A stretch of 64,000 bases of DNA, taken from the NCBI GenBank assembly GCA_040753675.1, contig JBFMEB010000005.1:2303-66302 (forward strand), given 5' to 3'. The position numbers and the translations under genes were made by a program. Numbering within the stretch: the stretch's first letter is position 1; every line of letters starts with the position of its first letter. Below, piece by piece: positions 939 through 26,367 of the stretch. The notes under the pieces were generated by a model. The model did no database searches and had not been told where the DNA came from. It saw only the letters and a program-made list of their open reading frames with translations. This DNA is from Candidatus Omnitrophota bacterium. GTDB lineage: Bacteria; Omnitrophota; Gorgyraeia; JAHJTE01.

Positions 939-957
939 AGGAGGTGACTAATCAGTA

Positions 958-1158: not shown

Positions 1159-1381
1159 TTTGTCTATTTTCTGATTTTTTTGCTTTTACTTGCAGATGGG
1201 TTAGTTGGTAAGACTCTATTTGGACTATTAAAAAAGATAAATTTAATTTATATGCTACACAGATTAACACAGATGAGATGCTACAAGATGAACACAGATG
1301 TTGGGTTAAACTACCTGTGTTTATCTACTTTTTTTAATCTGTGTCCATCTGTGCAATGTTTTTTATTTAATTGACAAAAAA

Positions 1382-3254: not shown

Positions 3255-3255
3255 A

Positions 3256-4521: not shown

Positions 4522-4560
4522 CCTTTATTTACAATCTAAGATAAAAAAACTCTTGTGGGC

Positions 4561-4681: not shown

Positions 4682-4712
4682 AAATAAAATCAGATTTAAA
4701 GAGAGGTTTAAT

Positions 4713-6283: not shown

Positions 6284-6284
6284 A

Positions 6285-7043: not shown

Positions 7044-7055
7044 GAAGAATTTAGA

Positions 7056-8486: not shown

Positions 8487-8531
8487 ATAGTCATATTTAT
8501 CCTAACTATAAGCGGGTCAGATAGTTTTGTT

Positions 8532-8558
8532 TTTGAAAAATACCCGCTATGTCTCACT
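8532..8558 (+). terminator. Possible weak hairpin after manC (agcgggt ... acccgct)
   Basis: 7-bp inverted repeat with a long loop and no adjacent T-run, so weak. Confidence 0.2.
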
Positions 8559-8579
8559 TTATACCTTTGGTTAATATGC

Positions 8580-8608
8580 TTGACAGGTTTAAGAGTTGCA
8601 AGTAAAAT
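8580..8608 (+). promoter_or_regulatory. Sigma70-like promoter candidate for the glycan-island regulator (TTGACA -17 bp- TAAAAT)
   Basis: TTGACA at 8580-8585, a 17-nt spacer, TAAAAT at 8603-8608, about 34 nt upstream of the ORF start at 8642. A TATAAT is also present at 8609-8614. Confidence 0.45.
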
Positions 8609-8641
8609 TATAATGTTCATTTTACGAACATTACTTAGAAG

Positions 8642-9259
8642 ATGCCAAATCCTCCATTAGAATTCTTAAAACCATCTACAGATTTAAGGAATCTTAAATT
8701 ATTGGAAGAAATCTCCAAAGAGGCTAAAATTTCGCAGCGAAAACTCGCCCGTCGCCTCGGAGTGGCCCTGGGAGTTACCAATGCCTGCTTAAAAAAGATG
8801 ATAAAAAAAGGCTTTATAAAAGTCAAAGGCATTAGTAATCGCCGAATTATCTATTATCTTTCGCCCAAAGGCTTTAGCGAAAAAACGCGTCTCACATATT
8901 ACTTCCTCCAACACACAATTTCTTATTATGTAAGTCTTAAAAAGAAGATTTATGAAAAGTTGCGATTGTTAGAGGCCGATAATGTCAAAAGGATTATTTA
9001 TTATGGTGCAGGTGAGGTTATGGAAGTCGCCTTTATTACTTTGCATGAAACTAACCTCGAACTTGTCGGAATAATAGATGATGATGGAGCCAAACATGGC
9101 AAAAAGAAGTTTGGATTTGTTATAAGTGCTCCAGCGATTATAAAGGAACTAAAACCCGATGCTATTTTTATTACCTCTTTAAAATTTAGAGATGAAATCT
9201 TGAATAATCTGGAAAATGACGAGTCGTTAAGGCAAATCAGACGATATTCATTAGATTAA
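8642..9259 (+). CDS. Winged-helix transcriptional regulator fused to a NeuD/PglD-N-terminal-like Rossmann (nucleotide-sugar/CoA-binding-like) domain
   Basis: N-terminal LEEISKEAKISQRKLARRLGVALGVTNACLKKMIKKGF is HTH-like. The C-terminal YYGAGEVMEVAFITL...VGIIDDDGAKHGKKKFGFVISAPAIIKELKPDAIFITS resembles the N-domain of NeuD/PglD/WbaP-type enzymes. Confidence 0.55.
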   Translation: MPNPPLEFLKPSTDLRNLKLLEEISKEAKISQRKLARRLGVALGVTNACLKKMIKKGFIKVKGISNRRIIYYLSPKGFSEKTRLTYYFLQHTISYYVSLKKKIYEKLRLLEADNVKRIIYYGAGEVMEVAFITLHETNLELVGIIDDDGAKHGKKKFGFVISAPAIIKELKPDAIFITSLKFRDEILNNLENDESLRQIRRYSLD

Positions 9260-9293
9260 AATAGTTTCATATAAACGAAAGAGAGATTAAAAA

Positions 9294-10436
9294 ATGAAAA
9301 TTCCTTTAATTGATTTAAAAAAACAATATCGCAGCATTAAAGAAGAAGTAAATGAGGCAGTTCTGCAGGTTTTGGAAAGCGGCTCTTTTATCTTAGGCGA
9401 AAACGCAGAAGCACTAGAGGAAGAATTTGCCTACTTTTGTAAGGTAAAATACGCTGTAGGCGTTGCTTCTGGCACTGATGCTTTGGAGCTATCCTTGAGA
9501 GCTTTAGGCATAGGCCAAGGCGATAAAGTCATTACTACCCCCTTTACATTTATCGCTACCACAGAGGCCATCGGTCAGGTAGGCGCAACGCCAATATTTG
9601 TTGACATCAATCCAGAAACTTATAATATTGATCCTAAAAAAATAACCGAATATTTACTCGGAATTACGAATTTGCAACGTCAAGCCATAAAGGCTATAAT
9701 TCCAGTCCATCTTTATGGCCAACCCTGCGATATGGATAGACTAATTAAAATTGCTAAAGATTATAACTTAAGGATAGTCGAAGACTGTGCCCAAGCTGTT
9801 GGTAGCGAATATAAAGGGGAAAAAGTTGGCTCCTTTGGCGATACGGGTTGTTTTAGCTTTTTCCCAAGTAAAAACTTAGGTGCTTATGGCGACGGCGGCA
9901 TGATAGTTACCAATGACGAAAAAGTTGCCCAACGTTTAAGAATGCTACGTGTTCATGGAAGTAAAGATAAATATCACCACATTAGCGAAGGGCGTAACAG
10001 CCGCCTTGATGAGTTACAGGCAGCCATCTTAAGGGTAAAATTAAGACACTTAAATAACTGGAACGAATCTCGGCGAAAAAATGCAGCTGCCTACAATGAA
10101 AATCTAGGTAAAGAAAACCTTAATGGCAAAGTCATATTGCCAAGGGAACTCATGGGAGCAAAACATACTTACCATCTCTATGTAGTAAGAGTCAAAGATA
10201 GAGATAGACTACGTAATTTTTTAGAATCGAACGATGTCCAGACAGGCGTCCATTATCCTTTACCCCTTCATCTTCAAGAGGTTAATAAGAACTTGGGTTA
10301 TAATAGAGGCGATTTCCCAACAAGTGAACTAATTTCCGATGAAATTATCTCGCTTCCAATGTATCCAGAACTTGATAAAGTAGCAATTAGTTATATTTCA
10401 GATTTAATTTCCAATTTTCTTAAGGAGAGAAGATGA
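9294..10436 (+). CDS. DegT/DnrJ/EryC1 family PLP-dependent nucleotide-sugar aminotransferase (WbpE-like)
   Basis: 380 aa with a sugar-aminotransferase fold and a strong AGGAG-type RBS. Reading it as an aminotransferase depends on the DegT lysine, which I did not locate. Followed by a Gfo oxidoreductase and an acetyltransferase. Confidence 0.85.
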   Translation: MKIPLIDLKKQYRSIKEEVNEAVLQVLESGSFILGENAEALEEEFAYFCKVKYAVGVASGTDALELSLRALGIGQGDKVITTPFTFIATTEAIGQVGATPIFVDINPETYNIDPKKITEYLLGITNLQRQAIKAIIPVHLYGQPCDMDRLIKIAKDYNLRIVEDCAQAVGSEYKGEKVGSFGDTGCFSFFPSKNLGAYGDGGMIVTNDEKVAQRLRMLRVHGSKDKYHHISEGRNSRLDELQAAILRVKLRHLNNWNESRRKNAAAYNENLGKENLNGKVILPRELMGAKHTYHLYVVRVKDRDRLRNFLESNDVQTGVHYPLPLHLQEVNKNLGYNRGDFPTSELISDEIISLPMYPELDKVAISYISDLISNFLKERR

Positions 10437-12079: not shown

Positions 12080-13054
12080 GTGGATTGGTCTAAAAAAGTA
12101 ATTTTGTTAACTGGTGGGACAGGTTCATTTGGGCAGAAATTTACTGAAGTCATGCTTAAAAAATATAGACCCAAAGTTATAAGAATTTTTAGCCGCGATG
12201 AATTGAAACAGTGGGATATGGAGAAAAAGTTTAATAACCATAGACAGTTAAGATTTTTCATTGGCGATGTTCGGGATAAAAATAGATTAGAGCGTGCAAT
12301 GGATGGAACTAATATTGTAGTACACGCTGCTGCCCTAAAGCAAGTACCTTTATGTGAATACAATCCATTTGAGGCAGTGAAAACAAATATTCTTGGTGCT
12401 CAAAATGTTATCGAAGCGGCTATTGATCATAACATAGAAAAAGTTATGGCGATAAGCACAGATAAAGCAGTAAATCCTGTGAATTTATATGGTGCAAGCA
12501 AGATGTGCATGGAAAAACTATTTATTGCTGCAAATGCTTATGTGGGATCTAAAAGAAAGACAAAGATGTCCTCTGCCCGTTATGGGAATGTAATAGGCAG
12601 TAGAGGCAGTATCATTCCATTGCTTAAGGAGCAAAGGTTAAGCGGAACAATTACGATTACGGATAGAAGGATGACACGTTTCTGGATTACGCTTGAACAT
12701 GGCGTAGAATTTGTAATTCAATGCATAGAAAAAATGCATGGAGGCGAGGTATTTGTGCCAAAGGTACCTAGCATGAGGATTATGGATTTAGCAAAGACAA
12801 TCGCTCCAAGATGTAAAATAAAATATATTGGAATACGTCCAGGTGAAAAAATTCATGAATGTCTGCTGACTGAGGATGAGTCGGGGCATGCATTGGAATA
12901 TAAGGATTTATTTGTAATCATACCTGATCATCCATGGTGGTCTTTTGATAATTGGAAGGATGGAAAGAAGCTTTCTCAGGGATTCAAATATACAAGTGAT
13001 TCAAACCCTCACTGGTTAAACGAAAAGGAATTACTCAAGATGATAGAGGAGTAA
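12080..13054 (+). CDS. pseB: UDP-N-acetylglucosamine 4,6-dehydratase (inverting), PseB/FlaA1-type short-chain dehydratase
   Basis: VILLTGGTGSFGQKF, 324 aa, Polysacc_synt_2-like, with catalytic Y..K (YGASKMCMEK). Followed by a pseC-like gene. Confidence 0.82.
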   Translation: MDWSKKVILLTGGTGSFGQKFTEVMLKKYRPKVIRIFSRDELKQWDMEKKFNNHRQLRFFIGDVRDKNRLERAMDGTNIVVHAAALKQVPLCEYNPFEAVKTNILGAQNVIEAAIDHNIEKVMAISTDKAVNPVNLYGASKMCMEKLFIAANAYVGSKRKTKMSSARYGNVIGSRGSIIPLLKEQRLSGTITITDRRMTRFWITLEHGVEFVIQCIEKMHGGEVFVPKVPSMRIMDLAKTIAPRCKIKYIGIRPGEKIHECLLTEDESGHALEYKDLFVIIPDHPWWSFDNWKDGKKLSQGFKYTSDSNPHWLNEKELLKMIEE

Positions 13055-13055
13055 G

Positions 13056-14207
13056 GTGAGATTTATACCATATGGTCATCATACAATAGGTAGAGATGAT
13101 ATACGTGCCGTAGTAGATGTATTGAATTCTGATTGGATTACTCAAGGTTCAAAGATAGGAGAATTTGAAGATGCTGTCTGTAAGTATACGGGTGCAAAAT
13201 ATGCGGTAGCAGTAAATTCAGGGACAGCAGCTCTTCATGCAGCCAGTTTTGCTGCCGGTATAAAATGCAAAGATGAAGTTATTACATCTCCAGTAACTTT
13301 TCTGGCTACAGCAAATTGTATAGTTTACCAGAAAGCCAAACCTGTATTTGCAGATATCAATGCCAATAGTTTAAATATAAACCCTGAAGAGATAGAGAGA
13401 AAAATAACTCGTAGGACAAAAGCTATAATCGCCGTTCATTTCGCAGGTTTTCCTTGCAATATGGATAAGATTTTAAGTATTGCAAAGAAGAACCGGCTTA
13501 TTGTTATTGAAGATGCATCACATGCTTTGGGTGCGCAATATAAAGGCAGAAAGATTGGGTCAATTGGCAATATGACTACCTTTAGCTTTCACCCTTTGAA
13601 GTCTATTACTACAGGTGAAGGCGGAATGATATTAACTAACAATAAGAAATTATATACTCGTTTACTCTGTTTTAGAAATCATGGGATAGTAAAGAATAAA
13701 AAGAAGTTGCGCAAGATCGGTCCTTGGTATTATGAGATGCAGAATTTAGGTTATAATTACCGGATTACTGATTTTCAATGCGCATTAGGTATAAACCAAC
13801 TGGCAAAATTAGATAAATTTATTAGAAGGCGCGAAGAGATTGCCATTCGTTATAATGAATTATTTAAAGATATAGATAATTTTATAGAATTTCCTCAAGA
13901 AGTTCCAAATTATATTAAGCATGCCTGGCATCTTTATATTATTCAGTTAAGATTGGATAGGTTAAAAATAAGCAGGAAAAAATTTTTCAATATTTTGCGT
14001 AATAAGAATATTGGAGTTCAGGTGCATTATATCCCGATACACTTACAACCTTTTTATAAAAGAAATTTTGGTTATAAGAAGGGAGATTTTCCTCAGGCAG
14101 AGAGATTTTATGAAAGAGCAATAACTTTACCCATCTTTCCAGCATTGGCAAATAAAGATATAGACAGGATTGCTAAAACAGTTAAGAGTTTGGTGAAAAA
14201 TAGATGA
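13056..14207 (+). CDS. pseC: UDP-4-amino-4,6-dideoxy-N-acetyl-beta-L-altrosamine transaminase (PseC-like DegT aminotransferase)
   Basis: MRFIPYGHHTIGRDDIRAVVDVLNSDWITQG is the characteristic PseC N-terminus. The PLP lysine context is SFHPLKSI. Confidence 0.82.
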   Translation: MRFIPYGHHTIGRDDIRAVVDVLNSDWITQGSKIGEFEDAVCKYTGAKYAVAVNSGTAALHAASFAAGIKCKDEVITSPVTFLATANCIVYQKAKPVFADINANSLNINPEEIERKITRRTKAIIAVHFAGFPCNMDKILSIAKKNRLIVIEDASHALGAQYKGRKIGSIGNMTTFSFHPLKSITTGEGGMILTNNKKLYTRLLCFRNHGIVKNKKKLRKIGPWYYEMQNLGYNYRITDFQCALGINQLAKLDKFIRRREEIAIRYNELFKDIDNFIEFPQEVPNYIKHAWHLYIIQLRLDRLKISRKKFFNILRNKNIGVQVHYIPIHLQPFYKRNFGYKKGDFPQAERFYERAITLPIFPALANKDIDRIAKTVKSLVKNR

Positions 14208-15190
14208 GAGTATTAGTAATCGGTTGCGGATCAATAGGAGAAAGGCACATACAGAATTTAAGAAAATTAAAGATAGGGGAGATTTTAATATCCGACATAG
14301 ATAAGAAGAGACTTCTTTATGTATCAAGAAAATATAAAATTAGCCTCATATTTAATAATTTTAAGGATGCTTTAGAGAAAAAGCCTGATGCGGCAATAAT
14401 CTCTACGCCTCCCAATTCACACATCCCCATAGGGCTGGCAGTAGTTAATAGTGGGGTCCATGCTTTTATCGAAAAACCTCTTTCGGATAGACTAAAAGGA
14501 ATAGATGAATTTATTAAGGAATCAAAAAAGACAAAATTAGTAATTTTTATTGGGTATAATTTACGTTTTCATCCCGGCCTGCAGTTAGTTAGAAAAATCT
14601 TAACTAAAGGAACTATCGGCCGTATCCTTTGCGCCAGGGCAGAATTTGGGCAAAATCTTACCCAATGGAGACCTAATCAGGATTACCGGCGCAGTTATAG
14701 CGCTAAAAAAGCAATGGGCGGAGGGATTATTCTCGAATCTTCCCATGAATTAGATTATCTTTCTTGGCTAATCGGAGATATAAAAAATATTAATTGCTTT
14801 GCCAAAAAGGTTAGTACCTTAGAGGTAGATACTGAGGATACTGCCCAGATTCTGTTAGAGTTTAAGAGCGGTGTCATTGCCCAGGTTCATCTTGATTTTA
14901 TTCGCTATGATTATTCCCGTAATTGCGAGCTGATAGGAGACAAGGGGACGATAATCTGGGATTATTCCAAAAGTCAAGTCAAAGTCTATATTGCGGATAA
15001 AAAAAAATGGAAAATATTTAATGTAAACTTCAAACCGAATAATATGTATCTTGAAGAGTTGAGACATTTTATCAACTGCATCTTAAAAAAACAAAGGCCT
15101 TTAATTAGCGCAGAGGAAGGCAGAAAGATATTGAGAGTAGCTTTGGCAGCAAAAAGGTCTGCAAAAACGGGCAAAAAGGTCTCATTATGA
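14204..15190 (+). CDS. Gfo/Idh/MocA family oxidoreductase
   Basis: MRVLVIGCGSIGERH Rossmann, EKPLSD motif. 328 aa. Confidence 0.8.
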   Translation: MRVLVIGCGSIGERHIQNLRKLKIGEILISDIDKKRLLYVSRKYKISLIFNNFKDALEKKPDAAIISTPPNSHIPIGLAVVNSGVHAFIEKPLSDRLKGIDEFIKESKKTKLVIFIGYNLRFHPGLQLVRKILTKGTIGRILCARAEFGQNLTQWRPNQDYRRSYSAKKAMGGGIILESSHELDYLSWLIGDIKNINCFAKKVSTLEVDTEDTAQILLEFKSGVIAQVHLDFIRYDYSRNCELIGDKGTIIWDYSKSQVKVYIADKKKWKIFNVNFKPNNMYLEELRHFINCILKKQRPLISAEEGRKILRVALAAKRSAKTGKKVSL

Positions 15191-17244
15191 GAAAAGTCAT
15201 AGCAATAATCCAGGCAAGGATGGGTTCAAGCAGACTTGCGAATAAGGTATTAAAAGATATATCTGGTAAACCTATGCTCTGGCATGTAGTTGAGCGTACG
15301 CAGAGAGCAAAATCTGTTAACTTGGTTGTTTTAGCCACTTCTACCAATGTTTTAGATGACCCAATAGAGGAATTTGCCAAGAAGAACAACTTAAATATTT
15401 TTCGCGGATCGGAAGAAGACGTCTTGGATAGATATTACCGGGCTGCAAAAAAATTCAAGGCCGATATAGTTGTAAGGATTACAGGTGATTGTCCGCTAAT
15501 TCCTCCCGAAATCATTGATAAGGTAGTTAGGACTTTTCTTAAGGGCAAGTGCGACTTTGTTACTAATACAATCATCTACACCTATCCAGATGGTTGCGAC
15601 GTAGAAGTTTTTTCTTTTAAAGCACTTCTAAAATCTTGGAAAGAGTCTAGTGAGCCAATCGAGAGGGAACACGTTTCAGTCTATATTAGAAATTCTAATA
15701 GGTTTAAAATGAAAAACGTCAGGGATGAAACTTCGCTTGCTTCTGGAGCATACCATTGGTCTGTTGATAGAATTGAAGACTTGAAGTTTGTTAGAGAAGT
15801 ATATAAGCATTTATATAAAGATGGCAGGATATTTTCTTATGAAGATATCATTGATTTATTAAGACGACACCCTGAGATTAAAGAGATAAATAAGCAGGCA
15901 ATATCAAATGAGGGATATTATAGGAGTTTATTGAAGACACCTAAAATTAAACCAAAAAAAATAGCAATTAAAAAATCACTTTTGTTGAAAGATAAAGCAC
16001 GGAAGTTGATTCCCGGATGTAGCCAGACATTCAGTAAGGGCCCGTCTCAATTCGTGCAAGGGATCGCTCCTGTTTTTTTAGAAGATGCCAAAGGTTGTCG
16101 TGTTCGGGATGTTGATGGTAATGAATATATCGACTATGCTATGGCTCTCGGTCCGGTAGTTTTAGGTTACAACTATCCTTCCGTATCTGAGGCGGTTAAA
16201 AAGACTTTGGAAAAAGGCACTACTTTCACTCTGCCAAATAGATTAGAGGTGGAATTATCTGAAATTTTATGCGAGATAATTCCCTGCGCACAAATGGTCC
16301 GTTTTGGCAAGAATGGATCAGATGTAACTTCCGGTGCGGTTAGAGTTGCACGCGCCTACACAGGTAAGGATAAAGTTGCCTGCTGCGGCTATCACGGTTG
16401 GCAGGACTGGTATATTGCGACTACATCCAGAGATAGAGGCATTCCCGAAGCAGTGAAAAACTTAAGCTTAACCTTTGAATATAATAAAATCGAAACCTTA
16501 GAAAAAGTTTTTGCGCAAAATTTGAATCAGATTGCCTGCGTAATTATGGAACCTGTTGGAGTTATTGAGCCGAAAGATAATTTCTTAGAGAAGGTCAAGG
16601 AACTAACCCATAAAAATGGTTCAATATTGATATTTGATGAGGTTATTAGCGGATTCCGTTTCGCATTAGGTGGTGCAGGAGAATATTTTAATGTGATTCC
16701 TGACTTGGCGTGTTTTGGTAAGGCGATGGGGAACGGTTTTCCCATATCAGCGGTTGTAGGTAAAAAAGAGATTATGAAATTATTTGAAGAGGTATTTTAC
16801 TCTTTTACCTTTGGGGGTGAAATCGTTTCTATCGCTGCTGCTATAGCAACAATTAAAGAGCTAAGAAAAAAAAGTGTTATAAGATATCTTTGGAGTCAAG
16901 GAAGAAAAATAAAAGACGGATTCAATGTTTTGGTAAAAGAGTACAGTTTAGAAAATCACATGCAATGTAGAGGACTCCCCCCCAGAACCGTAATTACATT
17001 CAAAGACGAGAAAGGCGACGATGGTCTATTGTTAAAAAGTTTATTTCAACAAGAATGCATAGACAGAGGAATCCTCTTTACCTCTGCGCATAATATCTGT
17101 TTTAGCCATTCAGATAAAGATATTGATTATACCTTGCGAGTTTATAATACAGTTTTAGAAATAATTAAAGGAGCCGTTCTTAGGGGCAGAGTCAAAAAGA
17201 TGCTTAAAGGCGAGATGCTTAAGCCTATATTTAGAAAAGTCTGA
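15187..17244 (+). CDS. pseF: Fusion protein: N-terminal acylneuraminate/pseudaminate cytidylyltransferase (PseF/NeuA-like, CMP-sugar synthase) plus C-terminal class-III (GSA-aminomutase/HemL-like) PLP aminotransferase
   Basis: N-terminal VIAIIQARMGSSRLANKVLKDISGKPML (CTP_transf_3 signature) for about 230 aa, then a linker. Residues about 270-685 show an aminotransferase class III pattern (GYHGWQDWY, FDEVISGFR, ACFGKAMGNGFP with the PLP Lys). Confidence 0.8.
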   Translation: MRKVIAIIQARMGSSRLANKVLKDISGKPMLWHVVERTQRAKSVNLVVLATSTNVLDDPIEEFAKKNNLNIFRGSEEDVLDRYYRAAKKFKADIVVRITGDCPLIPPEIIDKVVRTFLKGKCDFVTNTIIYTYPDGCDVEVFSFKALLKSWKESSEPIEREHVSVYIRNSNRFKMKNVRDETSLASGAYHWSVDRIEDLKFVREVYKHLYKDGRIFSYEDIIDLLRRHPEIKEINKQAISNEGYYRSLLKTPKIKPKKIAIKKSLLLKDKARKLIPGCSQTFSKGPSQFVQGIAPVFLEDAKGCRVRDVDGNEYIDYAMALGPVVLGYNYPSVSEAVKKTLEKGTTFTLPNRLEVELSEILCEIIPCAQMVRFGKNGSDVTSGAVRVARAYTGKDKVACCGYHGWQDWYIATTSRDRGIPEAVKNLSLTFEYNKIETLEKVFAQNLNQIACVIMEPVGVIEPKDNFLEKVKELTHKNGSILIFDEVISGFRFALGGAGEYFNVIPDLACFGKAMGNGFPISAVVGKKEIMKLFEEVFYSFTFGGEIVSIAAAIATIKELRKKSVIRYLWSQGRKIKDGFNVLVKEYSLENHMQCRGLPPRTVITFKDEKGDDGLLLKSLFQQECIDRGILFTSAHNICFSHSDKDIDYTLRVYNTVLEIIKGAVLRGRVKKMLKGEMLKPIFRKV

Positions 17245-17980: not shown

Positions 17981-18427
17981 ATGAAAAAAATGTTGGTTCT
18001 TAATGGGCCAAATCTTAACATGTTCGGTAAGCGGGATCCCTCGTACTACGGTACCATCACCTTAAAGGAAATTAATGAGAAGATCGAGGAATTAGCCCTG
18101 GAACTCGGGTTTGCGGTAGAATGCTTCCAAACAAACCATGAGGGGATAATGGTGGAAAAAATACACGGGATCCGAGAAGAAGATGTTGATGCCCTGATTA
18201 TCAATGCTGGGGCGTGGACCCATTACAGCTACGCCATCATGGATGCTTTGGCTATCATTAAAGTGCCGATCATCGAGGTGCATATGTCTAATATTCACAC
18301 TAGGGAGGTATTTCGGCATTATTCAGTAATTGCGCCGCTGGCGAAGGGGCAAATCACTGGATTCGGGCTGAACAGTTATCTATTGGGCTTGAGAGCTGCA
18401 TGGGATTTGATCAAAGATAATAAATAG
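17981..18427 (+). CDS. aroQ: Type II 3-dehydroquinate dehydratase
   Basis: MLVLNGPNLNMFGKRDP...HMSNIHTRE, canonical type II DHQase, 148 aa. Confidence 0.9.
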   Translation: MKKMLVLNGPNLNMFGKRDPSYYGTITLKEINEKIEELALELGFAVECFQTNHEGIMVEKIHGIREEDVDALIINAGAWTHYSYAIMDALAIIKVPIIEVHMSNIHTREVFRHYSVIAPLAKGQITGFGLNSYLLGLRAAWDLIKDNK

Positions 18428-18490: not shown

Positions 18491-19513
18491 ATGAATATCT
18501 TAATTTACGGTGCCGGTGCAATTGGATGTCACATTGCGTATTGTATGTATGTAACACGACATACTCCATATCTTATTGCGAGAGGGCAGCATTATGAGCA
18601 AATGAAAAAATATGGCATGCACATCAAGATATGTGATAATGAAATATTAAAGGATGAAAAATTTATCAAGGAAGATTCTAGGTTTTATATTGTAAACGAT
18701 GTGAACAAAGTAAAAGATACCAAAATGGACTATATTTTCATAACCGTCAAATTGAACGATTACAATGACAAAACACTCCAGGATCTATATCCATTTATGG
18801 GGAAAGACACAGCTGTTATTCCTCCTTGCACAGAACTTCCTTTCTGGTGGTTTTATGATCTTAATGGAAAATCTAATGAGAAATACAAAGATATTGATTT
18901 CAACCCAGAGGTAAGTAGGTATTTCATTAGAGAGAATATTATCGGCATGACCATGTGGCTATCCTCTGTTATAGAGAGTCCGGGCCACGTATGCGTTAAA
19001 CATGTCCAGAGAGGCTATCCATTGAAAGAACTATATCCGAATATGAAAGAGCGCGCAGAAAAGCTGAGAAGTATTTTTCAGATAACCTGTATGTCACCCG
19101 TTGTGGATAATATCAGAAGCGAAATCTTCATTAAATCCATAAATGCATTTGCTTTTAACTTAGTTGCTTTAGATAGGGAATGCGATAATGTACAATTAAG
19201 TCATGACAAATATGGCCAAGATTGTATCCGAAAGATTATGATAGAAGGCGAGCAGATCCTTCGAATCCTAAATATCCCAGTTATCCAAGAAATTGAGGAT
19301 AGAATTACTCAGACTTTATCCAGTACGAAACATACGATGAGTATGCTTCATGACTACAGGATGGGTAAGCAGATTGAATTAAGTGCTCTGTGGCAGAGCT
19401 TCGATAGTTTTTGCAAGATCTTGGGAATAAATATGGGATATTCTAGAGATATGTATGAAAAGGTAATGGCGAAGATTAGTGCGAAAAAACACGCAACAGT
19501 GTTAAAGAGATGA
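18491..19513 (+). CDS. Ketopantoate reductase (ApbA/PanE) family NAD(P)-dependent 2-ketoacid/hydroxyacid reductase-like protein
   Basis: MNILIYGAGAIGCHIA Rossmann typical of the ApbA family. 340 aa with a C-terminal helical domain. Confidence 0.6.
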   Translation: MNILIYGAGAIGCHIAYCMYVTRHTPYLIARGQHYEQMKKYGMHIKICDNEILKDEKFIKEDSRFYIVNDVNKVKDTKMDYIFITVKLNDYNDKTLQDLYPFMGKDTAVIPPCTELPFWWFYDLNGKSNEKYKDIDFNPEVSRYFIRENIIGMTMWLSSVIESPGHVCVKHVQRGYPLKELYPNMKERAEKLRSIFQITCMSPVVDNIRSEIFIKSINAFAFNLVALDRECDNVQLSHDKYGQDCIRKIMIEGEQILRILNIPVIQEIEDRITQTLSSTKHTMSMLHDYRMGKQIELSALWQSFDSFCKILGINMGYSRDMYEKVMAKISAKKHATVLKR

Positions 19514-19530: not shown

Positions 19531-21111
19531 ATGGATATCATTCATTATCTTATTAATAATGTAGAGCGGTTTGCGGATAAAACTGCCATCATTTTTGCTG
19601 ATACCTTCTTATCTTACTCTGAATTTGCTGAAAAAACGCGCAGGCTAGCCGGCACCTTGAGCACAATAGGTGTCAGGAAAGGAACTCACATAGGCCTGCT
19701 TCTAAATAATTCTGTAGAGTTCGCAATAACCATGTTTGCTGCTGCTGATTTGGGCGCAACCATAGTGCCCATGGTTACTACTTTGGGTGATAACGATCTA
19801 CTTACAGCGATAAATTTCACCGATGTCGATTTTATTATTGGGTGGCATACCACCCTAAAGGATGTGTTCTATAGATTGCAGGGTAATTTTCCGCTTTCGC
19901 GTCAACATTGCATTTCTGTTGGCGCAGAGATTGACGGATGTAGGGCATTTAGCGAGATGTTGAACGCTCAGCTGCCAGCTTATGAATTGGGACGTAGGAT
20001 GATTGATGAGGAGACGGATTTTATTCTGACCATGACTTCAGGATCGACCAGTGCTCCTAAGCCTATAGTTTTTACACAAGGCACAAAAATCCGAAGGAGC
20101 TTGGGAGCGCAGGAACTATATAATATCACCGATAACGATGTCACGCTTGTTGGTACTCCTATGTACCATTCCCTTGCTCAACGGCTTGTTTTAATGCCGA
20201 TTATTACCGGAGGAACTTGTGTAATTATGCAGAAATTCACTCCTAATAATTGGCTCACCCACGTCAATAAGCATAAGGTTACTTTCAGCATTGCAGTTTC
20301 CTCCCAATTGGAAATGATATTGCAGGATTTAAAGGAGACAGAGGCTGATTTAAGCTCTTTGCGGTGTATTGTTTCCTGCTGTGCATTGTTAAAAAATGAC
20401 ATTAAATCGCGTTTAATCAAGGAATTAAAATGCCATTTTCACGAGTGTTACGGTACTTCTGAAGTTGGAGTTGTATCTAATCTGGCTCCCGAAGACTCGT
20501 CTAAGAAACTGTCTAGTGTCGGCAAGGCAGCTCCTGGTGTCGAGCTCAAGATCGTTGACGCAAAAGGAAAGCCAGTTGTCAGAGGGGAGATTGGCGAGAT
20601 TACCTGCAAAACGCCAATGCGCTTTTCCCGTTACTACAAGAATGAACAAGCTACCCAAGAGAGTATGGTAGATGGTTTCTTTTGCACTGGGGATATGGGA
20701 TATTTAGATGAGGACAATTACCTTGTTTTTTCTGGCCGCAAGAAAGAGATCATAATCACCGGTGGCATCAATGTCTATCCAACGGATGTTGAAGCTGTCT
20801 TGAATGAGCATCCAAAGGTCAAAGAGTGTGCGGTGATCGGGGTTGAAGATAGAAGGTTCGGGGAAGCCGTCCTGGCGCTGATCATTCCCAGAGAAGGCGA
20901 ACCACTCACCAGCCGCGAACTGCAACGTCACTGCATGTATCGCTTGGCCGACTTTCAGCAACCAATGAGTTACGAGTTTGTTAAAACACTTCCCAGAAAC
21001 GAATTAGGAAAACCTCTCAAACGCAAACTTAAAGAGCAGTTTCAAGGTTATGATGTAAGTGCGGCAGTAAGAAGAATAATGAGTAAGCCTAAGGAAAAAT
21101 ATGGAGAATAA
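19531..21111 (+). CDS. AMP-dependent synthetase/ligase (acyl-AMP / acyl-CoA or acyl-ACP ligase, ANL superfamily)
   Basis: AMP-binding core TSGSTSAPKP, YGTSE and a GDMGYLDEDNYLVFSGRKKE hinge, with a catalytic K in LGKPLKRKL. 526 aa. Confidence 0.85.
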   Translation: MDIIHYLINNVERFADKTAIIFADTFLSYSEFAEKTRRLAGTLSTIGVRKGTHIGLLLNNSVEFAITMFAAADLGATIVPMVTTLGDNDLLTAINFTDVDFIIGWHTTLKDVFYRLQGNFPLSRQHCISVGAEIDGCRAFSEMLNAQLPAYELGRRMIDEETDFILTMTSGSTSAPKPIVFTQGTKIRRSLGAQELYNITDNDVTLVGTPMYHSLAQRLVLMPIITGGTCVIMQKFTPNNWLTHVNKHKVTFSIAVSSQLEMILQDLKETEADLSSLRCIVSCCALLKNDIKSRLIKELKCHFHECYGTSEVGVVSNLAPEDSSKKLSSVGKAAPGVELKIVDAKGKPVVRGEIGEITCKTPMRFSRYYKNEQATQESMVDGFFCTGDMGYLDEDNYLVFSGRKKEIIITGGINVYPTDVEAVLNEHPKVKECAVIGVEDRRFGEAVLALIIPREGEPLTSRELQRHCMYRLADFQQPMSYEFVKTLPRNELGKPLKRKLKEQFQGYDVSAAVRRIMSKPKEKYGE

Positions 21112-22147
21112 AGAACATCATATAGTCATCTCTGTAATTATCCCTATGTACAACATTCAACGCTATATAACTACGTCTTTAAATAGATTAAAATCTCAAA
21201 CCCTATCTCAATATCTTTTTGAGGTAGTTTTGGTTGACGACTCCTCAACAGACGATACTTTTATTATTGCAAAAAGTTTTAGGGGAATAAGAAATTTAAC
21301 AGTAGATAAACTTAAAAAAAACTCAGGGCCGGGCATTGCCAGAAATAGGGGAATTGAGTTAGCAAAAGGAGACTATATACTTTTTCTTGATGGCGATGAT
21401 TATCTTTTAGAGTCTTCTTTAGAAAAGATATTTACCATAATCAATAACCATGACATCGATGTAGTCACTTTTAATTGGACGTATTACAAAGATTTAATAG
21501 AGCAGAATCCAATACCCAGAAGAAGAGATTTAGATGATATGCCTATGGATAGATTTTATTTAACAAAACACTATTTAGGAATGAATATGGATGGCTCTGT
21601 GATTTATACTTTAGTAAAGAAATCTGTATTAGTTAAGAATAACATCAAATTCCCAGCAGGTTTTCATGAAGACATGTCAATTATTTTTCAAATATATTAT
21701 TCTGCCAGAAACATATTAAAGCTAAATGAGATTATCTATATAAAAAGAGATAGGCCTGACTCAATTAATCACACTTTTAGCAAAAAGCATGTCTATGACT
21801 ATCTCAGTGCCTGGCCAAAAATAATGGATTTTTTAATAAAAAAAGAAGGCAGTAGTGCCAAGCATAAATATAGGCAAGACTACTTAAGAGGCATATCAGG
21901 ATTAGTGGCTACGTTGATTAGGAAAAATTTAAATATAAATTCTAAAAATTTTAATAAAAGATTAGAATTATATAAATGTATAGTAAAAAGCTTAAAAGCC
22001 AATAAATATTTAGCCGATATTAAAATGCTTCCCAACATAACAAAAAAAGACAAAATTACGCAACTATTTTTGAGATCAATGTTAGCAAAAGATCTTCCAA
22101 TTGAAAAAAAAGTAGAGTTTTTTGAGGAATGCGGTCTTAACAAATAA
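21101..22147 (+). CDS. Glycosyltransferase family 2
   Basis: ISVIIPMYNIQRY..., DDSSTD and FLDGDD (DxD) motifs. Confidence 0.85.
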   Translation: MENKEHHIVISVIIPMYNIQRYITTSLNRLKSQTLSQYLFEVVLVDDSSTDDTFIIAKSFRGIRNLTVDKLKKNSGPGIARNRGIELAKGDYILFLDGDDYLLESSLEKIFTIINNHDIDVVTFNWTYYKDLIEQNPIPRRRDLDDMPMDRFYLTKHYLGMNMDGSVIYTLVKKSVLVKNNIKFPAGFHEDMSIIFQIYYSARNILKLNEIIYIKRDRPDSINHTFSKKHVYDYLSAWPKIMDFLIKKEGSSAKHKYRQDYLRGISGLVATLIRKNLNINSKNFNKRLELYKCIVKSLKANKYLADIKMLPNITKKDKITQLFLRSMLAKDLPIEKKVEFFEECGLNK

Positions 22148-22204: not shown

Positions 22205-23464
22205 ATGAAAAAGAGTTGGAGCTGCAGTGGTTTACACTACTCAATCTTTGCCGCTCCTGATGTTTTAAGGCATTGTTGTAAAAGATTTTTTGTAAATGGC
22301 CAAATGAGAGGGGATGTAGAGATATTTAAGGTTTTTTCTAACTCGGATATAAGCACTAAAAAAATTTTAGAGCATAAGCAAAAACTATATGAAGATATCA
22401 ATAGCGGCAAAGAAACTCCTTGTAGTAGTTGCCCTTGGATAAAATACGATGATTGGGAGCCGTTTAATAAACTTAAAATAAAGCATCTATCTATAGAAAA
22501 TCACACTGTATGCAATCTAAGATGTACCTACTGCAATGAGACATATTACGGAGGTAAAAAATCTAACTATGATATTATGCATTTATATAAGGAGTTAAAA
22601 TTAAAAGATGCTTTTGATGAAAATATTTCTCTGGTGTGGGGTGGAGGCGAACCGCTTTTATTAAATTCTTTTTATGAAATTTTTTCAACATTAACTCAAG
22701 AGCTTGCCCCATCTCGTAATAACATCTTTACAAATGCCATTATATACAGTGATAGTGTTGCAAAGTATCTAAAAGAGGGCAAAGTTACCATTACAACAAG
22801 TATTGATGCAGGATTTAGGAGTACCTACAATAAAATTAGAGGCTCTGATAAATTAATTACAGTACTGCAAAACTTAAAAAAGTATTATCAATGTGATAAA
22901 GATGGAATTACTGTTAAATATTTACTACTACAAGAAAATAGCAATGAAGATGAAGTTTTAGCTTTTGTAGATAAAATAAAAGAATATGGGCTTAGTGGAT
23001 GTACTTTTCAAATAAGCACGAACTATAAAACCGAACGAATTGATGAAAAAATAGCCAGAACATCAATTTTTCTTTTTAATGAGTTAAAAAAATGTGGTAC
23101 TAAACTCATAAATTTCGATGATCATTTAAGGCCAAGGCTTAATTCAATGAGAGATAGTTTGAATATAAAGAGTAGTTACTCAGATAAAGACGTCATAATC
23201 TGGGGGGCGGGTGATTATGCAGAAATGATGTTAAAAGAGAGCAGCTTCTTTAATAATAGAAATATTAGATGCTTCGTAGATAGTAGTAGACAAAAGCATG
23301 GTAAAAAGTTTGGGCCTTACGAGATAAAGCCACCTAAAGCTGTTTTAGAGAATGAAGATACCTACATATTTATAGCCTCGACAAGCTATTACAGGCAAAT
23401 ATATAGCCAAATCTTAGATATGGGGGTTTCACCAAAAAGAATTATTGACGATGTTGTTATCTAA
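22205..23464 (+). CDS. Radical SAM enzyme (non-B12) with N-terminal Cys-rich segment and C-terminal NeuD/PglD-N-like Rossmann domain
   Basis: CNLRCTYCNE (CxxxCxxC), GGGEPLL glycine-rich SAM motif, N-terminal CSGLH...HCCKRFF...CSSCPW, and a C-terminal IIWGAGDYAEMML...RCFVDSSRQKHGKKFGPYEI...YIFIAS resembling the C-terminus of the regulator at 8642. Confidence 0.78.
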   Translation: MKKSWSCSGLHYSIFAAPDVLRHCCKRFFVNGQMRGDVEIFKVFSNSDISTKKILEHKQKLYEDINSGKETPCSSCPWIKYDDWEPFNKLKIKHLSIENHTVCNLRCTYCNETYYGGKKSNYDIMHLYKELKLKDAFDENISLVWGGGEPLLLNSFYEIFSTLTQELAPSRNNIFTNAIIYSDSVAKYLKEGKVTITTSIDAGFRSTYNKIRGSDKLITVLQNLKKYYQCDKDGITVKYLLLQENSNEDEVLAFVDKIKEYGLSGCTFQISTNYKTERIDEKIARTSIFLFNELKKCGTKLINFDDHLRPRLNSMRDSLNIKSSYSDKDVIIWGAGDYAEMMLKESSFFNNRNIRCFVDSSRQKHGKKFGPYEIKPPKAVLENEDTYIFIASTSYYRQIYSQILDMGVSPKRIIDDVVI

Positions 23465-24961
23465 TAAACATTTTTTAATTATAACTCCTTTGAGGACGGC
23501 TTCGTTGCCATTGGAACCTGCCTTGGGTCCTCTAAGCCTTTATTCATTTGCGGTAAAAAATGGTTTTGATGGTGACTTGCTGGATTTTAACACGATAATT
23601 AGCGAAGAGAATATTCGAGACTACGACGATATTGTAAATACTTCACTCCAGCAATGGCTCAATTCTCATCCAGAGGCAAAAATCGTTGGCATAACTGTAC
23701 TCTTTTCTGGGGTTTTTAGAAGAGCACTTAAAATTGCGAAAGTTGTAAAGAAGATACGCAGTGATGTTTCTGTGGTGATCGGCGGCAACCACCCATCTAT
23801 ATTTCCTAAAGAAATAATAGAAAACTGTCCAGAAATAGACTATGTAGTTATTGGGGAAGGTGAAGAACAATTTTTGAATCTGCTCAAGTTGCACTCACAA
23901 GGGTCTGTTTCTAAAGCCAATCTTGATATAGACAATGGCATTGCCTATAGGTCTGACGGTAAAGTTGTCGTAAAAGAGAAAATACGCTATATATACGATT
24001 TGGGCTCACTAGGTATAACAAATTATGTTCAAGTTAACTTTGCAAAATATCATACTCCAGATATGGATACATGGTATAACCCAAAGAAGCACGACATCAT
24101 ATGCGCAATGCCCATAACTACATCTAGAGCATGTCCCTATAGTTGCAGCTTTTGCAGTATGTATAGAGTAATGGGACGCAAATTTCGTTCCAGACCTGTT
24201 GAGGTTGTGCTGGAAGAATTGAAAATTTTGTATTATGAGCACAATATTAGATATTTTAGAATCATGGATGACTGTTCTACTTTTGACAAGAAAAATTCGA
24301 TGAAGCTGTTTCTTGAGATTGCTAAGAGTGATATGGATTTGTCTTTCGAATTTTATAACGGTTTAAGCATCAGAACACTCGACAATGAACTGATCGATAT
24401 CCTTGTGGAAAATGGCTTAGTGCGAGGAAGTCTACCCATTGAAAGCGGCTCGGAATTTCTTAGAAATAAGATTATGAATAAAAATCTTCCTGAAGATAAA
24501 ATTTATGAAGTATATAAATATTTTGAAAAAAACATCCCCACATATGGCTTATTGGATTTTTTTTGATAGGTCTTCCTGAAGAAACTGTTGAGACATTAGA
24601 GGATACTATTAACATGATCAAAAACTTAAAGACTATTTATCCTATTTTTAATATCCTTGTTCCTTTTCCAGGAACAAGGCTTTGGGAACAGTGCGTTAGA
24701 GATAACTTGCTGCTGATGGATATTAAAGATGTCTGGAAATACCCTTTTTGGGCACATCCGACCACTATTGACAGAGCAGAGAAAGATAGAGGCGAATGGT
24801 GCTCTGAAACTTTTGTCAAAAATGAGCAGGCTTTCCTAATCCAGCCTTACAACCTGAGTTTAGAGCAGCTTGCGTATTATTACAAAAAGCTACTCAATCT
24901 AAGAGCTGAATCATGGCAAAGAATTGAGCAACGGAAGCAACTTCAAGCCAAAATTCGTTGA
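23445..24961 (+). pseudogene. B12-binding radical SAM enzyme interrupted by a frameshift in a T8 homopolymer (two ORFs, 23445-24566 and 24563-24961)
   Basis: The first ORF has a B12-binding domain plus the rSAM motif ITTSRACPYSCSFC and ends LLDFF* inside tttttttt (24557-24564). The second ORF continues with IGLPEETVETLEDTINMIK, the FMIGLPxET region conserved in class-B rSAMs. A +1 T would fuse them as ...LLDFFLIGLPEE. Confidence 0.75.
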
Positions 24962-24972
24962 GAGGTAATGTT

Positions 24973-26085
24973 ATGATTAATAATCCACTACAACTCGCGT
25001 TTATCGGAGGAGGGATAGGCTCTATCGCCGGAACGCCACATTTTGCTGCTGCTTCCATGGATGCTAGATTTAAACTGATCGCCGGAGCGTTTAGCTTAGA
25101 TACGCAAACAAACCTTCAATCGGCTGCAAGATGGGGGATAAAACGATACTATGATTCCTGGCGGGATTTGATTAAAAAAGAAAAAAATAATATCGACGCT
25201 GTCGTTATTCTGACCCCTACTCCGATTCATTCTGATATGATATGTGCTTTATTGGAGCAAAACACCCCCATCATCAGTGAAAAAGCAGTTGTCCAGACAA
25301 TGGAGGAGATTCAAAAACTAAAAAAAATCTATAATCCCAAGGATCACTTTTTGACTGTAATATACAACTATAGCGGCTATCCGCTTATCAGGGAATTAAA
25401 ACAGAGGATTTCCAATGGTGAGCTTGGTAAAATTATCAATATTCGCTTGGAAATGCCCCAAGAGTCTTTTCTAAGGTCCCCCGTCAGCACAAAATACCCT
25501 CAAGATTGGAGACTGCAAGACAAATATATCCCGACAATCTGTCTTGATTTAGGTGTGCATTTACACCAATTGGCTTTCTTTTTAACAGAGATGGAACCCT
25601 GTTCACTTTTTTCAACAATGAAAAACTTTTCAAAGTATTCCGTTATAGACGATGTTGAAATACAACTAAAATACGATAATGGAGCTTCAGGAAATTTTTG
25701 GATGAGCAAGACAGCCATTGGTCACAGAAATGGACTTAGAGTACGTATTTATGGAAAAAAAGCATCAGCACAGTGGTATCAGGCCGAACCAGAAACTATG
25801 GTTTTAAGTTATGTCAATGGAGAAAAAAAGATAATTGAACGCGGCGGCGATAATTTTATTTGCAATAAAAAAAGATACAATAGGATGGTTCCTGGTCATC
25901 CGGCTGGATTTATCGAAGCCTTTGCAAATATATATAGTGATATCGCTGATGCTCTTACAGCGTTTAAAAATAAGAAAAATTATAAAAATCAATATGTTTT
26001 CGATCTCGAGCTGGCAGAAAGAGGATTAAATCTCTTTCACAGAGCCAGAGAATCACATGAACAGAAATGCTGGCTATCGATCTAA
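24973..26085 (+). CDS. Gfo/Idh/MocA family oxidoreductase
   Basis: LQLAFIGGGIGSIAGTPHF Rossmann. The ATG at 24973 is preceded by AGAGG, while the ORF-track start at 24958 is a TTG. Confidence 0.8.
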   Translation: MINNPLQLAFIGGGIGSIAGTPHFAAASMDARFKLIAGAFSLDTQTNLQSAARWGIKRYYDSWRDLIKKEKNNIDAVVILTPTPIHSDMICALLEQNTPIISEKAVVQTMEEIQKLKKIYNPKDHFLTVIYNYSGYPLIRELKQRISNGELGKIINIRLEMPQESFLRSPVSTKYPQDWRLQDKYIPTICLDLGVHLHQLAFFLTEMEPCSLFSTMKNFSKYSVIDDVEIQLKYDNGASGNFWMSKTAIGHRNGLRVRIYGKKASAQWYQAEPETMVLSYVNGEKKIIERGGDNFICNKKRYNRMVPGHPAGFIEAFANIYSDIADALTAFKNKKNYKNQYVFDLELAERGLNLFHRARESHEQKCWLSI

Positions 26086-26100
26086 AATGGGGGAAATATC

Positions 26101-26367
26101 ATGAACCCGCTGGAGGAAAGGATATACATATTCATAGTGGATTATCTAAGCAATATTTCGTCTATACCGTATCAAGATAAAAAAAGTATATTACAATACA
26201 GGTATTTGGATGTTGGGCATATTGATTCATTTGGCATTATAAACTTTATTATTACTCTGGAGGATAAGTTTGGTATTTCCTTGACAGCGCAAGATACAGA
26301 GTCGGATGAATTCAGAAGCATCGCAGGTCTCATAAAAACCATTACCAAAAAGCTTGAGAAAAGATGA
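26101..26367 (+). CDS. Acyl carrier protein-like (phosphopantetheine attachment Ser in GHIDSFGIINF)
   Basis: 88 aa, acidic with a four-helix pattern and a DSxx(I/L) motif. Sits next to an acyltransferase-like gene, with the AMP-ligase upstream. Confidence 0.65.
   Translation: MNPLEERIYIFIVDYLSNISSIPYQDKKSILQYRYLDVGHIDSFGIINFIITLEDKFGISLTAQDTESDEFRSIAGLIKTITKKLEKR

Follow-up and report, generated by a model that had tools for sequence, protein, structure and literature searches.

What does a radical S-adenosylmethionine (SAM) protein contribute to the making of a bacterial surface polysaccharide? The question is raised by an open reading frame (ORF) at 22205..23464 (+) in a stretch of 64,000 nucleotides (nt) of contig JBFMEB010000005.1 – the window – from a metagenome-assembled genome (MAG) of Candidatus Omnitrophota. 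A sequence-only reading of its 419-residue product, the target of this analysis, had distinguished a cysteine-rich N-terminal segment, a radical SAM core and a C-terminal domain resembling those of NeuD, PglD and WbaP, and had proposed direct radical chemistry on a nucleotide sugar. Our data show that the target is the radical SAM half of a two-part enzyme, which in most other bacteria is a single polypeptide of ~780 residues that begins with a GT2 glycosyltransferase.

The target is a genuine gene and no chance reading frame, given an identical NCBI protein (a 'radical SAM protein' from a Candidatus Omnitrophota MAG) and the 247 homologues found, more than 100 of which are full length, 35-85% identical and carry the same Pfam pair. 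It appears as a single ORF in the ORF listing of the window, starts with ATG ~8 nt downstream of a purine-rich ribosome-binding site (GGGAAGGA), and represents the stand-alone form of a unit comprising a cysteine (Cys) module, a radical SAM core and a mini-Rossmann domain. All the motifs from which the three-part layout had been read are present in the translation – CSGLH (7-11), HCCKRFF (23-29), CSSCPW (73-78), CNLRCTYCNE (103-112), IIWGAGDYAEMML (330-342), RCFVDSSRQKHGKKFGPYEI (355-374) and TYIFIAS (386-392) – and the layout is conserved among homologues. The full-length AlphaFold2 (AF2) model is of high quality (pLDDT 91.2, pTM 0.90). Nor is the unit rare: a library of 1.84 billion representatives returned 673 cluster representatives at E≤1e-30. 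Family members go by the names 'radical SAM protein' or 'Glycosyltransferase involved in cell wall biosynthesis' only; searches of Pfam, NCBIfam and the PDB found no curated model or solved structure that covers the family, and a single-sequence PDB search with the target gave zero matches. Residue conservation, as given below, was counted in 264 collected proteins and, separately, in an alignment of 39 full-length homologues.

Evidence for the glycosyltransferase half comes from the loci of the homologues, exact-sequence look-ups of the target protein and of P0001 having matched no contig; one genome per species was scanned, which gave 46 loci with a full-length relative. At 25 of these a single ORF of 765-836 residues holds a GT2 N-terminal half and the full radical SAM unit as its C-terminal half; at 12 more a separate GT2 gene abuts the radical SAM gene, with anything from a 16-nt overlap to a 180-nt gap. 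Nine loci remain, and in six the radical SAM gene lies within ~1.1 kb of a contig end, so that a GT2 partner is not assessable there. The large library gives the same picture, 88 of 144 newly returned best matches being at least 650 residues long with the unit at ~residues 340-780, and NCBIfam places GT2 models at ~4-245 and radical SAM models at ~437-611 of the fused proteins, while holding no curated model that spans the fusion. The organisms at the 46 loci include Omnitrophota, Planctomycetes, SAR11, Methylophilaceae, Pseudoalteromonas, Colwellia, Vibrio, Helicobacter, Sulfurimonas, Rhizobium, Magnetococcus, Accumulibacter, Verrucomicrobiota and Leptospirales, among others. The same architecture is thus widespread in other genomes, where the sequence-only reading had suggested looking for it, but its three-part description is incomplete: the unit is normally joined to a GT2.

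The window itself carries the split form of this enzyme. A TarS/WaaH-like GT2 gene (21101..22147, +; Pfam Glycos_transf_2, 106.8 bits) ends 57 nt before the target, and its product aligns to residues 7-287 of a fused 779-residue protein (P0124) with 32% identity (E 7e-42); adjacency to the target and homology to the fused N-terminal half together identify the pair. The best PDB match of the window GT2 is TarS (5tze, 1.8e-23) and its best NCBIfam model PRK10073, which we take to be the WaaH/YibD model. The label 'poly(ribitol-phosphate) beta-N-acetylglucosaminyltransferase' that JGI gives to stand-alone radical SAM homologues did not count for us as a sign of function, being probably an annotation carried over from the GT2 half of fused relatives.

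A central issue is what this pairing achieves. The fusion or abutment of the GT2, together with a recurring cassette of GFO/IDH/MocA oxidoreductase (GFO), DegT aminotransferase and ligase, makes a sugar the likely substrate, whether a donor nucleotide sugar or the glycoside once transferred. We give somewhat better than even chances to the view that the pair carries out a radical sugar-tailoring step of some kind, coupled to sugar transfer, in the decoration of surface glycans; any single reaction type that might be named for it is doubtful at best. Radical chemistry directly on a nucleotide sugar, as first proposed, is not established, and the association with the GT2 and the GFO/DegT/ligase cassette is more informative about the substrate than the architecture from which that proposal came.

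That the target is a radical SAM enzyme is clear. The partial-barrel core, at residues ~93-320 (22481..23164, +), matches Pfam PF04055 (Radical_SAM) over residues 102-254 at 54.3 bits against a cutoff of 29.5. Its CxxxCxxC motif (C103/C107/C110; 22511..22534, +), which is followed by a conserved YYGG...Y, is retained in 261/262, 263/263 and 263/263 relatives at the three cysteines; GGGE (146-149), with the SAM-binding GGE at G147-G148-E149, is invariant, and GGGEP (146-150) is conserved in the 39-homologue alignment. Fold matches to radical SAM cores have a probability of 1.00. The Y-Y-G-G-x4-Y stretch directly after the CxxxCxxC loop (residues 103-122, 22511..22570), in which G116 and Y122 are invariant and Y115 and G117 nearly so, is the sole lower-confidence part of the model (pLDDT ~64) and may be a family-specific substrate loop.

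The matches of the core among known radical SAM enzymes are generic. With the full model, Foldseek finds the cores of SkfB, SuiB, PFL-AE, CteB, BlsE, viperin and anSME at a TMq of at most 0.42; a profile search of PDB sequences returns SkfB (2.4e-9), CteB (8.9e-9), BtrN (E 7e-4) and BlsE (0.0068); and NCBIfam offers solely generic radical SAM models, all far below their cutoffs, the best being MoaA (TIGR02666) at 50.3 bits against 284. The leading positions of SkfB and CteB in the profile search, and of SkfB, SuiB and PFL-AE in the Foldseek list, might suggest a maturase of ribosomally synthesised and post-translationally modified peptides (RiPPs), or an activase of glycyl-radical enzymes. These matches are limited to the generic core, however, and the recurrent neighbour clusters of the 46 loci, which are uniformly carbohydrate-related, include neither a precursor peptide nor a glycyl-radical enzyme. 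On this genomic context we rejected both readings, to which we attach next to no probability. The best model and structure matches of the core do have a different feature in common: MoaA, SkfB, CteB, BtrN and anSME are all auxiliary-cluster enzymes.

This bears on the N-terminal Cys module (residues 1-92; 22205..22480, +), the proposed site of an auxiliary [4Fe-4S] cluster. The counts for its five cysteines are 247/247 (C7), 252/252 (C24), 250/252 (C25), 259/259 (C73) and 259/259 (C76); in the alignment of full-length homologues C7 is nearly invariant and the other four completely so, and all five recur in 14 of 14 fused proteins from loci with an ATP-grasp ligase. The suggestion that these cysteines could bind an auxiliary metal or cluster has gained from this result: the five are conserved, which makes an auxiliary cluster at the predicted site likely. 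The module has the spacing C-x11-D-x4-CC, then ~47 residues, then C-x2-C, and in the AF2 model is predicted to form a β-hairpin (13-22) followed by a helix (51-66). Twitch and half-SPASM domains follow the pattern CX9-15GX4C...CX2C. The arrangement C7-x11-D-x4-C24...C73-x2-C76 is compatible with SPASM/twitch spacing, but the Gly is replaced and no SPASM or Fer4 model matches; moreover, the auxiliary domain of SPASM and twitch enzymes is C-terminal, and in the target there is no conserved Cys beyond residue 110. Judging from this pattern, the module most likely holds a putative twitch-like [4Fe-4S] cluster placed before the core instead of after it. Five cysteines for a four-ligand site would leave one spare, and we speculate that it could serve as a hydrogen-atom donor.

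The module also occurs in other settings. In gut Gastranaerophilales, Vampirovibrio and Muribaculaceae, relatives of ~345 residues (L052-L080, e.g. L053 9989..11023) have retained the Cys module, with spacing C-x16-CC-x44-C-x2-C, and the radical SAM core; they have neither the Rossmann domain nor the GFO/ligase cassette, and an adjacent GT2 homologue was detected in three of 29. We considered these proteins of gut Melainabacteria and Muribaculaceae as a functional lead and dropped them for want of the Rossmann domain and the cassette. A protein of 993 residues (P0257) has two tandem Cys-module/radical SAM units, again without a Rossmann domain, and an N-terminal region that looks methyltransferase-like by eye.

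The C-terminal domain (residues 329-419; 23189..23461, +) shows W333-G334-x-G336-x-x-A and D359 at the end of the second β-strand. Modelled separately, residues 322-419 form a four-strand β-α mini-Rossmann of ~95 residues (pLDDT 90.7), and the fingerprint is well kept among relatives (G334 254/254, G336 242/254, D359 209/240). In Pfam, PglD_N (PF17836) scores 16.9 bits against a cutoff of 23.4 over residues 330-391, and C2185-like_N (PF22674) 25.4-26.0 bits against 27 over residues 329-414, the latter being listed by precomputed annotation on nearly all homologues. The C-domains of 27 homologues match CoA_binding (20), C2185-like_N (18), PglD_N (14, at E<0.1, best E 1.8e-6) and Methyltransf_14 (12). 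In the PDB, Foldseek finds NADH-binding domains of Rex (E 1.3e-4) and, with the best TM-score (TMq 0.75), 2g6t, then the N-domain of a WbpM-like protein (3nkl, TM 0.64), WbaP (8t53), biliverdin reductase, GFO-type dehydrogenases and the CoA domain of succinyl-CoA synthetase; VioB (7txp) and the PglB acetyltransferase match marginally (E 2e-3 to 1e-2). A profile search of PDB sequences with the C-domain returned the same set. 2g6t is an uncharacterised protein of Clostridium acetobutylicum and, to judge from this organism and its name, the 'C2185' of the Pfam family is most likely CA_C2185; if so, CA_C2185 adjoins the modified-sugar cluster CA_C2186-CA_C2199, which includes the DUF4910 protein CA_C2195 and has been tabulated (PMC4000134).

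Taken together, the likeness to NeuD, PglD and WbaP stands insofar as the domain belongs to the same group of small nucleotide-binding folds: with PglD/NeuD/VioB, with WbaP/WbpM (CoA_binding_3), with Rex and with CA_C2185 (PF22674) the target shares the small β-α-β fold, the G-x-G loop, the acidic residue after the second β-strand and a following K-x-G...V/I-x-x-P. The likeness is not, however, a special tie to PglD and NeuD. The target scores below the cutoffs of all these families, PglD_N included, and Rex and 2g6t are closer; and whereas in PglD and NeuD the domain precedes a left-handed β-helix acyltransferase, in the target it follows the radical SAM core at the very end of the protein, with no Hexapep match. 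Specificity for UDP- or CMP-sugars is accordingly not borne out, the relatives being generic nucleotide-binding mini-Rossmann domains. From sequence and model, a nucleotide-binding role is plausible.

Two alternatives hinge on this domain. In the first, the target would be a self-contained enzyme: the Rossmann domain binds a free UDP- or CMP-sugar, the radical SAM core epimerises, dehydrates or rearranges it, and the GT2 is a mere downstream consumer. Consistent with this, the fingerprint is common to PglD_N, WbaP/WbpM and the C-domains of nucleotide-sugar C-methyltransferases, the domain is kept in every type of cassette, including those free of a carrier protein, and the unit is always surrounded by nucleotide-sugar pathway genes. 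Yet the match to PglD_N falls short where the NADH domains of Rex and 2g6t come closer, the neighbouring sugars vary between CMP-nonulosonates and dTDP-6-deoxyhexose so that none is constant, and the GT2 fusion in most members argues for an obligatory coupling. We consider this alternative unlikely. In the second, NAD(P)H or a further SAM molecule would be the ligand of the domain, which would serve redox chemistry, regulation or oligomerisation instead of holding the substrate. Here the top structural relatives (NADH-sensing Rex, biliverdin reductase and the NAD domains of GFO type) and the classical GxGxxA fingerprint with its acidic residue ending the second strand are suggestive, but this mini-Rossmann has just four strands and lacks a catalytic partner domain, and NAD domains (TM-scores 0.5-0.65) fit it no better than 2g6t or 3nkl do. 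The probability of such a role appears low.

Around the GT2-radical SAM unit the same genes recur in distant genomes. Neighbours were labelled by homology to the window proteins and also clustered independently. A GFO is the most constant separate neighbour, at 27-35 of the 46 loci depending on the method, and a DegT aminotransferase lies near the unit at 26. A carboxylate-activating enzyme is present at 36 and is of two kinds. One is an AMP-ligase (type A, 24-26 loci), which usually comes with a small carrier protein and often with an AAC(3)-like N-acyltransferase; the other, an ATP-grasp ligase, is found at 14 loci, each of which has the fused form of the enzyme. The two occur together at only two loci. 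A homologous small carrier ORF stands beside the unit at 13-19 loci; none was detected beside the unit at the 14 ATP-grasp-type loci, all of which keep the whole unit including the Rossmann motif. Further members are an ApbA/PanE-like reductase (L003, L086 and five genome loci) and AAC(3)-like/DUF4910 genes (L001, L002, L003, L087).

The wider setting is that of surface glycans. In Pseudoalteromonas sp. SS15 the cassette sits in an island for flagellin glycosylation, together with genes for flagellin, FlaG, FliD, Maf and FliS and with Pse genes; in marine contigs it lies inside Pse- and Leg-type nonulosonic-acid clusters, and in one Vibrio it occurs beside RmlA/RmlB/DegT and a DAHP-synthase-family gene in a lipopolysaccharide (LPS) core locus that has no nonulosonate genes. 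A literature search for a known glycan structure of Pseudoalteromonas maricaloris was uninformative. Shikimate-pathway-type enzymes also recur near the cassette in unrelated organisms – type II dehydroquinase, Shikimate_dh_N, the DAHP-synthase family and a shikimate-kinase-like protein, at 17981..18427 of the window and at L086 2353..3189, L045 5552..6613, L087 13347..14240 and L002 3437..3934 – and may point to a carbocyclic acid, or one of the 3-deoxy-ulosonic type, as the acid that is joined to the amino sugar.

The cassette brings up a further alternative, namely that the radical SAM core modifies this carboxylic acid, free or carrier-tethered, before it is joined to the amino sugar, with CoA or phosphopantetheine bound by the Rossmann domain; the acid would possibly be a polyol acid derived from shikimate or an ulosonic acid. 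CoA_binding is the commonest Pfam match of the C-domains, many loci have a carrier-protein gene immediately before the fused one, and acid-forming enzymes recur nearby (type II dehydroquinase in the window, Shikimate_dh_N, DAHP_synth_1, ApbA). However, the complete unit persists at all 14 ATP-grasp-type loci, and the retention of the Rossmann motif there, with no detectable carrier protein, argues against a role of the domain specific to phosphopantetheine; moreover, the covalent fusion to a glycosyltransferase would be left unexplained. Chemistry on the acyl side is improbable, if slightly less so than an NAD(P)H- or SAM-binding role of the Rossmann domain.

The window contains both a GFO and a carboxylate-activating enzyme, the combination that marks the cassette of the fusion family, and matches type A. 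Its cassette is inside a pseudaminic-acid-type polysaccharide cluster of the Omnitrophota MAG, whose genes run in the order PseB-like, PseC-like, GFO, a cytidylyltransferase-aminotransferase fusion, methyltransferase, type II dehydroquinase, ApbA-like, AMP-ligase, GT2 and target, then a frameshifted B12-binding radical SAM gene, GFO, carrier protein, N-acyltransferase-DUF4910, PseG-like, NeuB, GNAT, DUF4910 and flippase. Upstream of the GT2 lie the ApbA/PanE-like 2-ketoacid reductase (18491..19513, +; by Pfam), a recurrent cassette member, and the type A AMP-binding acyl ligase (19531..21111, +; Pfam 222.8 bits). Downstream of the target are the GFO (24958..26085, +; by Pfam), a small ACP/DltC-like carrier protein with an IDSFG serine motif (26101..26367, +; a weak PP-binding match of 17.6 bits, DltC 25.7 bits) and a fusion protein that combines an AAC(3)-like N-acyltransferase with a peptidase-like DUF4910/DUF2172 domain (26364..28217, +; Pfam, with PDB relatives 3k9t, which is CA_C2195, and AAC(3) enzymes). 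For DUF4910 (CA_C2195, PDB 3k9t) a role in modified-sugar biosynthesis has been proposed (PMC4000134). The surrounding nonulosonic-acid pathway is represented by PseB-like (Polysacc_synt_2) and PseC-like (DegT) genes (12080..14207, +) and by PseG-like, NeuB/PseI-like and PseH-like GNAT genes (28214..30613, +; TIGR03590 127 against a cutoff of 153.6, NeuB 283.8 bits, Acetyltransf_3). The four top PDB relatives of the window GFO are unnamed oxidoreductases (E 2e-50 to 2e-38); weaker ones (E 7e-13 to 2e-6) include levoglucosan, scyllo-inositol and glucuronide-3 dehydrogenases and DgpA, so that dehydrogenases acting on the ring hydroxyls of a glycoside or cyclitol are among its named relatives.

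Immediately downstream of the target, a B12-binding radical SAM gene (23445..24961, +) is split by a 1-nt deletion in a run of eight T (24557..24564). Adding one T restores '...DFFLIGLPEET...', and the two fragments match an intact paralogue (51271..52686) over its residues 75-337 and 347-399; the frameshift could stem from misassembly, mark a pseudogene or belong to a phase-variable site. We rejected this gene as a functional partner, it being found at only three of the 46 loci and frameshifted in the window, and regard it as a local insertion. Six paralogous B12-binding radical SAM genes are present in the cluster (starting at 23445, 35936, 39812, 51271, 52693 and 54145, +; 23-43% pairwise identity), an unusually heavy load of cobalamin-dependent radical genes for a polysaccharide locus, which probably serve methylations.

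Several other genes of the window deserve mention. A second DUF4910 gene stands alone at 30649..32013. A single gene at 15187..17244 joins a cytidylyltransferase (CTP_transf_3, PseF/NeuA-like) to a class-III aminotransferase (HemL-like, NF004856 439 bits); at the locus L001 of Pseudoalteromonas the two are separate genes. A second acyl-decoration module in the cluster is suggested by an SDR gene followed by one for a 624-residue protein with an FkbH N-terminal-like domain (44958..47587), since enzymes of FkbH type load carrier proteins with glyceryl units. A 578-residue protein of the glycan cluster (57194..58930) matches DUF6044 over its full length (564 bits). The first 8.5 kb of the window (in the region 1..9300) are housekeeping: RF-1, PrmC, an EPSP_synthase-family protein, TrpG/TrpD/TrpC and ManC. 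A MarR/helix-turn-helix gene follows at 8642..9259, and from there to 63.8 kb every non-nested ORF of at least 120 residues is on the + strand, almost all the annotated ones belonging to glycan biosynthesis. The window contains no tRNA.

How, then, might the GT2-radical SAM enzyme work? In the mechanism that we propose, the cassette would decorate surface glycans with an N-acylated amino sugar. Reductive cleavage of SAM would generate a 5'-deoxyadenosyl radical, which would take a hydrogen atom from one of the carbons of the sugar on which the GT2 acts; at that point the sugar would be either a nucleotide-sugar donor about to be transferred or a glycoside newly formed. The auxiliary cluster, possibly with the spare Cys of the invariant CC pair, would then resolve the substrate radical; the outcome could be oxidation to a ketone, epimerisation, elimination or deoxygenation, or decarboxylation of a uronide. 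The Rossmann domain would hold the nucleotide handle. The second cluster, the class of substrate, the type of reaction and the Rossmann ligand are what we infer for the enzyme.

Each of these outcomes has a counterpart among known enzymes, although no specific sequence similarity to the target was found for the known sugar radical SAM enzymes BtrN, NeoN, HygY, AviX12, DesII, AprD4 and BlsE, with no test aimed at it made for NeoN, HygY and AviX12. BtrN, the 2-deoxy-scyllo-inosamine dehydrogenase, is a carbohydrate/cyclitol-tailoring twitch enzyme with one auxiliary [4Fe-4S] cluster, a DegT-family aminotransferase acts next in its pathway, and it matched the target weakly in the profile search. 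With C-x18-C-x43-C-x2-C, its cysteines are spaced in a way similar to C7...C24/25...C73-x2-C76 of the target. In BtrN, however, the auxiliary domain is C-terminal, there is no Rossmann domain and no glycosyltransferase fusion, and the sequence kinship is that of the generic core. NeoN, HygY and AviX12 epimerise a sugar after a glycosyltransferase has installed it, using an auxiliary cluster and a Cys as hydrogen-atom donor, a residue that the invariant CC pair of the target could likewise supply; but these are stand-alone enzymes of antibiotic pathways, with neither glycosyltransferase fusion nor Rossmann domain. DesII and AprD4 carry out eliminations and deoxygenations of sugars. The closest parallel at the level of a pathway is that of blasticidin type: in the blasticidin and gougerotin pathways a glycosyltransferase, a radical SAM enzyme (BlsE, cytosylglucuronate decarboxylase), a pyridoxal-phosphate-dependent aminotransferase and an amide ligase act in succession, a set of enzymes that parallels the GT2-radical SAM pair, DegT and ligase of the cassette. 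BlsE (7vob) itself matches weakly and in the core only (Foldseek E 2.4e-6, besides the profile match given above), has no N-terminal Cys module or Rossmann domain, and belongs to a nucleoside-antibiotic setting rather than a surface-glycan locus.

Other systems share single features. MoaA, the GTP 3',8-cyclase that gave the best curated-model score, is a radical SAM enzyme whose second cluster helps to bind a nucleotide substrate; that cluster is C-terminal, with three Cys, whereas the target has no molybdopterin context and scores far below the model's cutoff. The model NF033640 (N_Twi_rSAM), presumably of a family with an N-terminal twitch domain, has a cutoff of 170 bits; the target reaches 36.1 and the relatives for which it is listed 24.9-47.7. 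Positions ~105-310 of its 398 align with the core of the family at 36-48 bits, but its N-terminal ~100 positions do not align with the Cys module of the target. In the hopanoid side-chain pathway a GT2 (HpnI) works alongside radical SAM enzymes (HpnH, HpnJ) on the same glycoconjugate, and HpnJ is the best C-terminal match of the adjacent split B12-binding gene; unlike our pair these are separate proteins with lipid substrates, and there is no homology beyond the superfamily.

Several observations weigh against a radical sugar-tailoring step of this kind. Scanned against NCBIfam, the N-terminal 112 residues gave no meaningful match, and no Pfam model matches the Cys module either. The gene fusion shows functional coupling; it does not show that both active sites share a substrate. 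The co-conservation of an NAD-type GFO would make a BtrN-like dehydrogenase role partly redundant, and the closest solved relatives of the C-domain bind NADH (Rex), so that its ligand need not be a sugar nucleotide. Finally, the family has no biochemically characterised member, and a search of the literature on radical SAM enzymes in connection with pseudaminic, legionaminic and other nonulosonic acids, flagellin glycosylation and O-antigen yielded no paper on it.

To our knowledge, only a small number of radical SAM enzymes tailor sugars, and nearly all of these belong to antibiotic biosynthesis. Here, by contrast, is a family of hundreds of 50%-identity clusters, spread over many phyla and tied to a glycosyltransferase in surface-glycan loci – flagellin glycosylation islands, LPS core, O-antigen and capsule, and nonulosonic-acid clusters – and it provides a natural instance of a putative auxiliary-cluster module ahead of the radical SAM core. 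Nothing yet indicates that its chemistry is unprecedented; the fusion is a concrete case for new sugar chemistry. A bolder proposal, which we hold to be possible but would sooner expect to fail, is that the GT2-radical SAM enzymes are a previously unrecognised bifunctional class, in which glycosyl transfer is mechanically tied to a radical reaction at an unactivated C-H of the sugar. Were it true, the family could perform epimerisations, deoxygenations or C-C/C-N rearrangements beyond the reach of NAD-dependent enzymes, and would place a rare sugar in the surface glycans of the abundant marine bacteria SAR11, Pseudoalteromonas and Vibrio as well as in those of lineages of Helicobacter, Rhizobium and Omnitrophota. 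Solving the reaction would give proper names to genes now annotated merely as 'radical SAM protein' or 'glycosyltransferase', and would likely reveal a new modification of bacterial surface sugars together with a new coupling of radical chemistry to glycosyl transfer.

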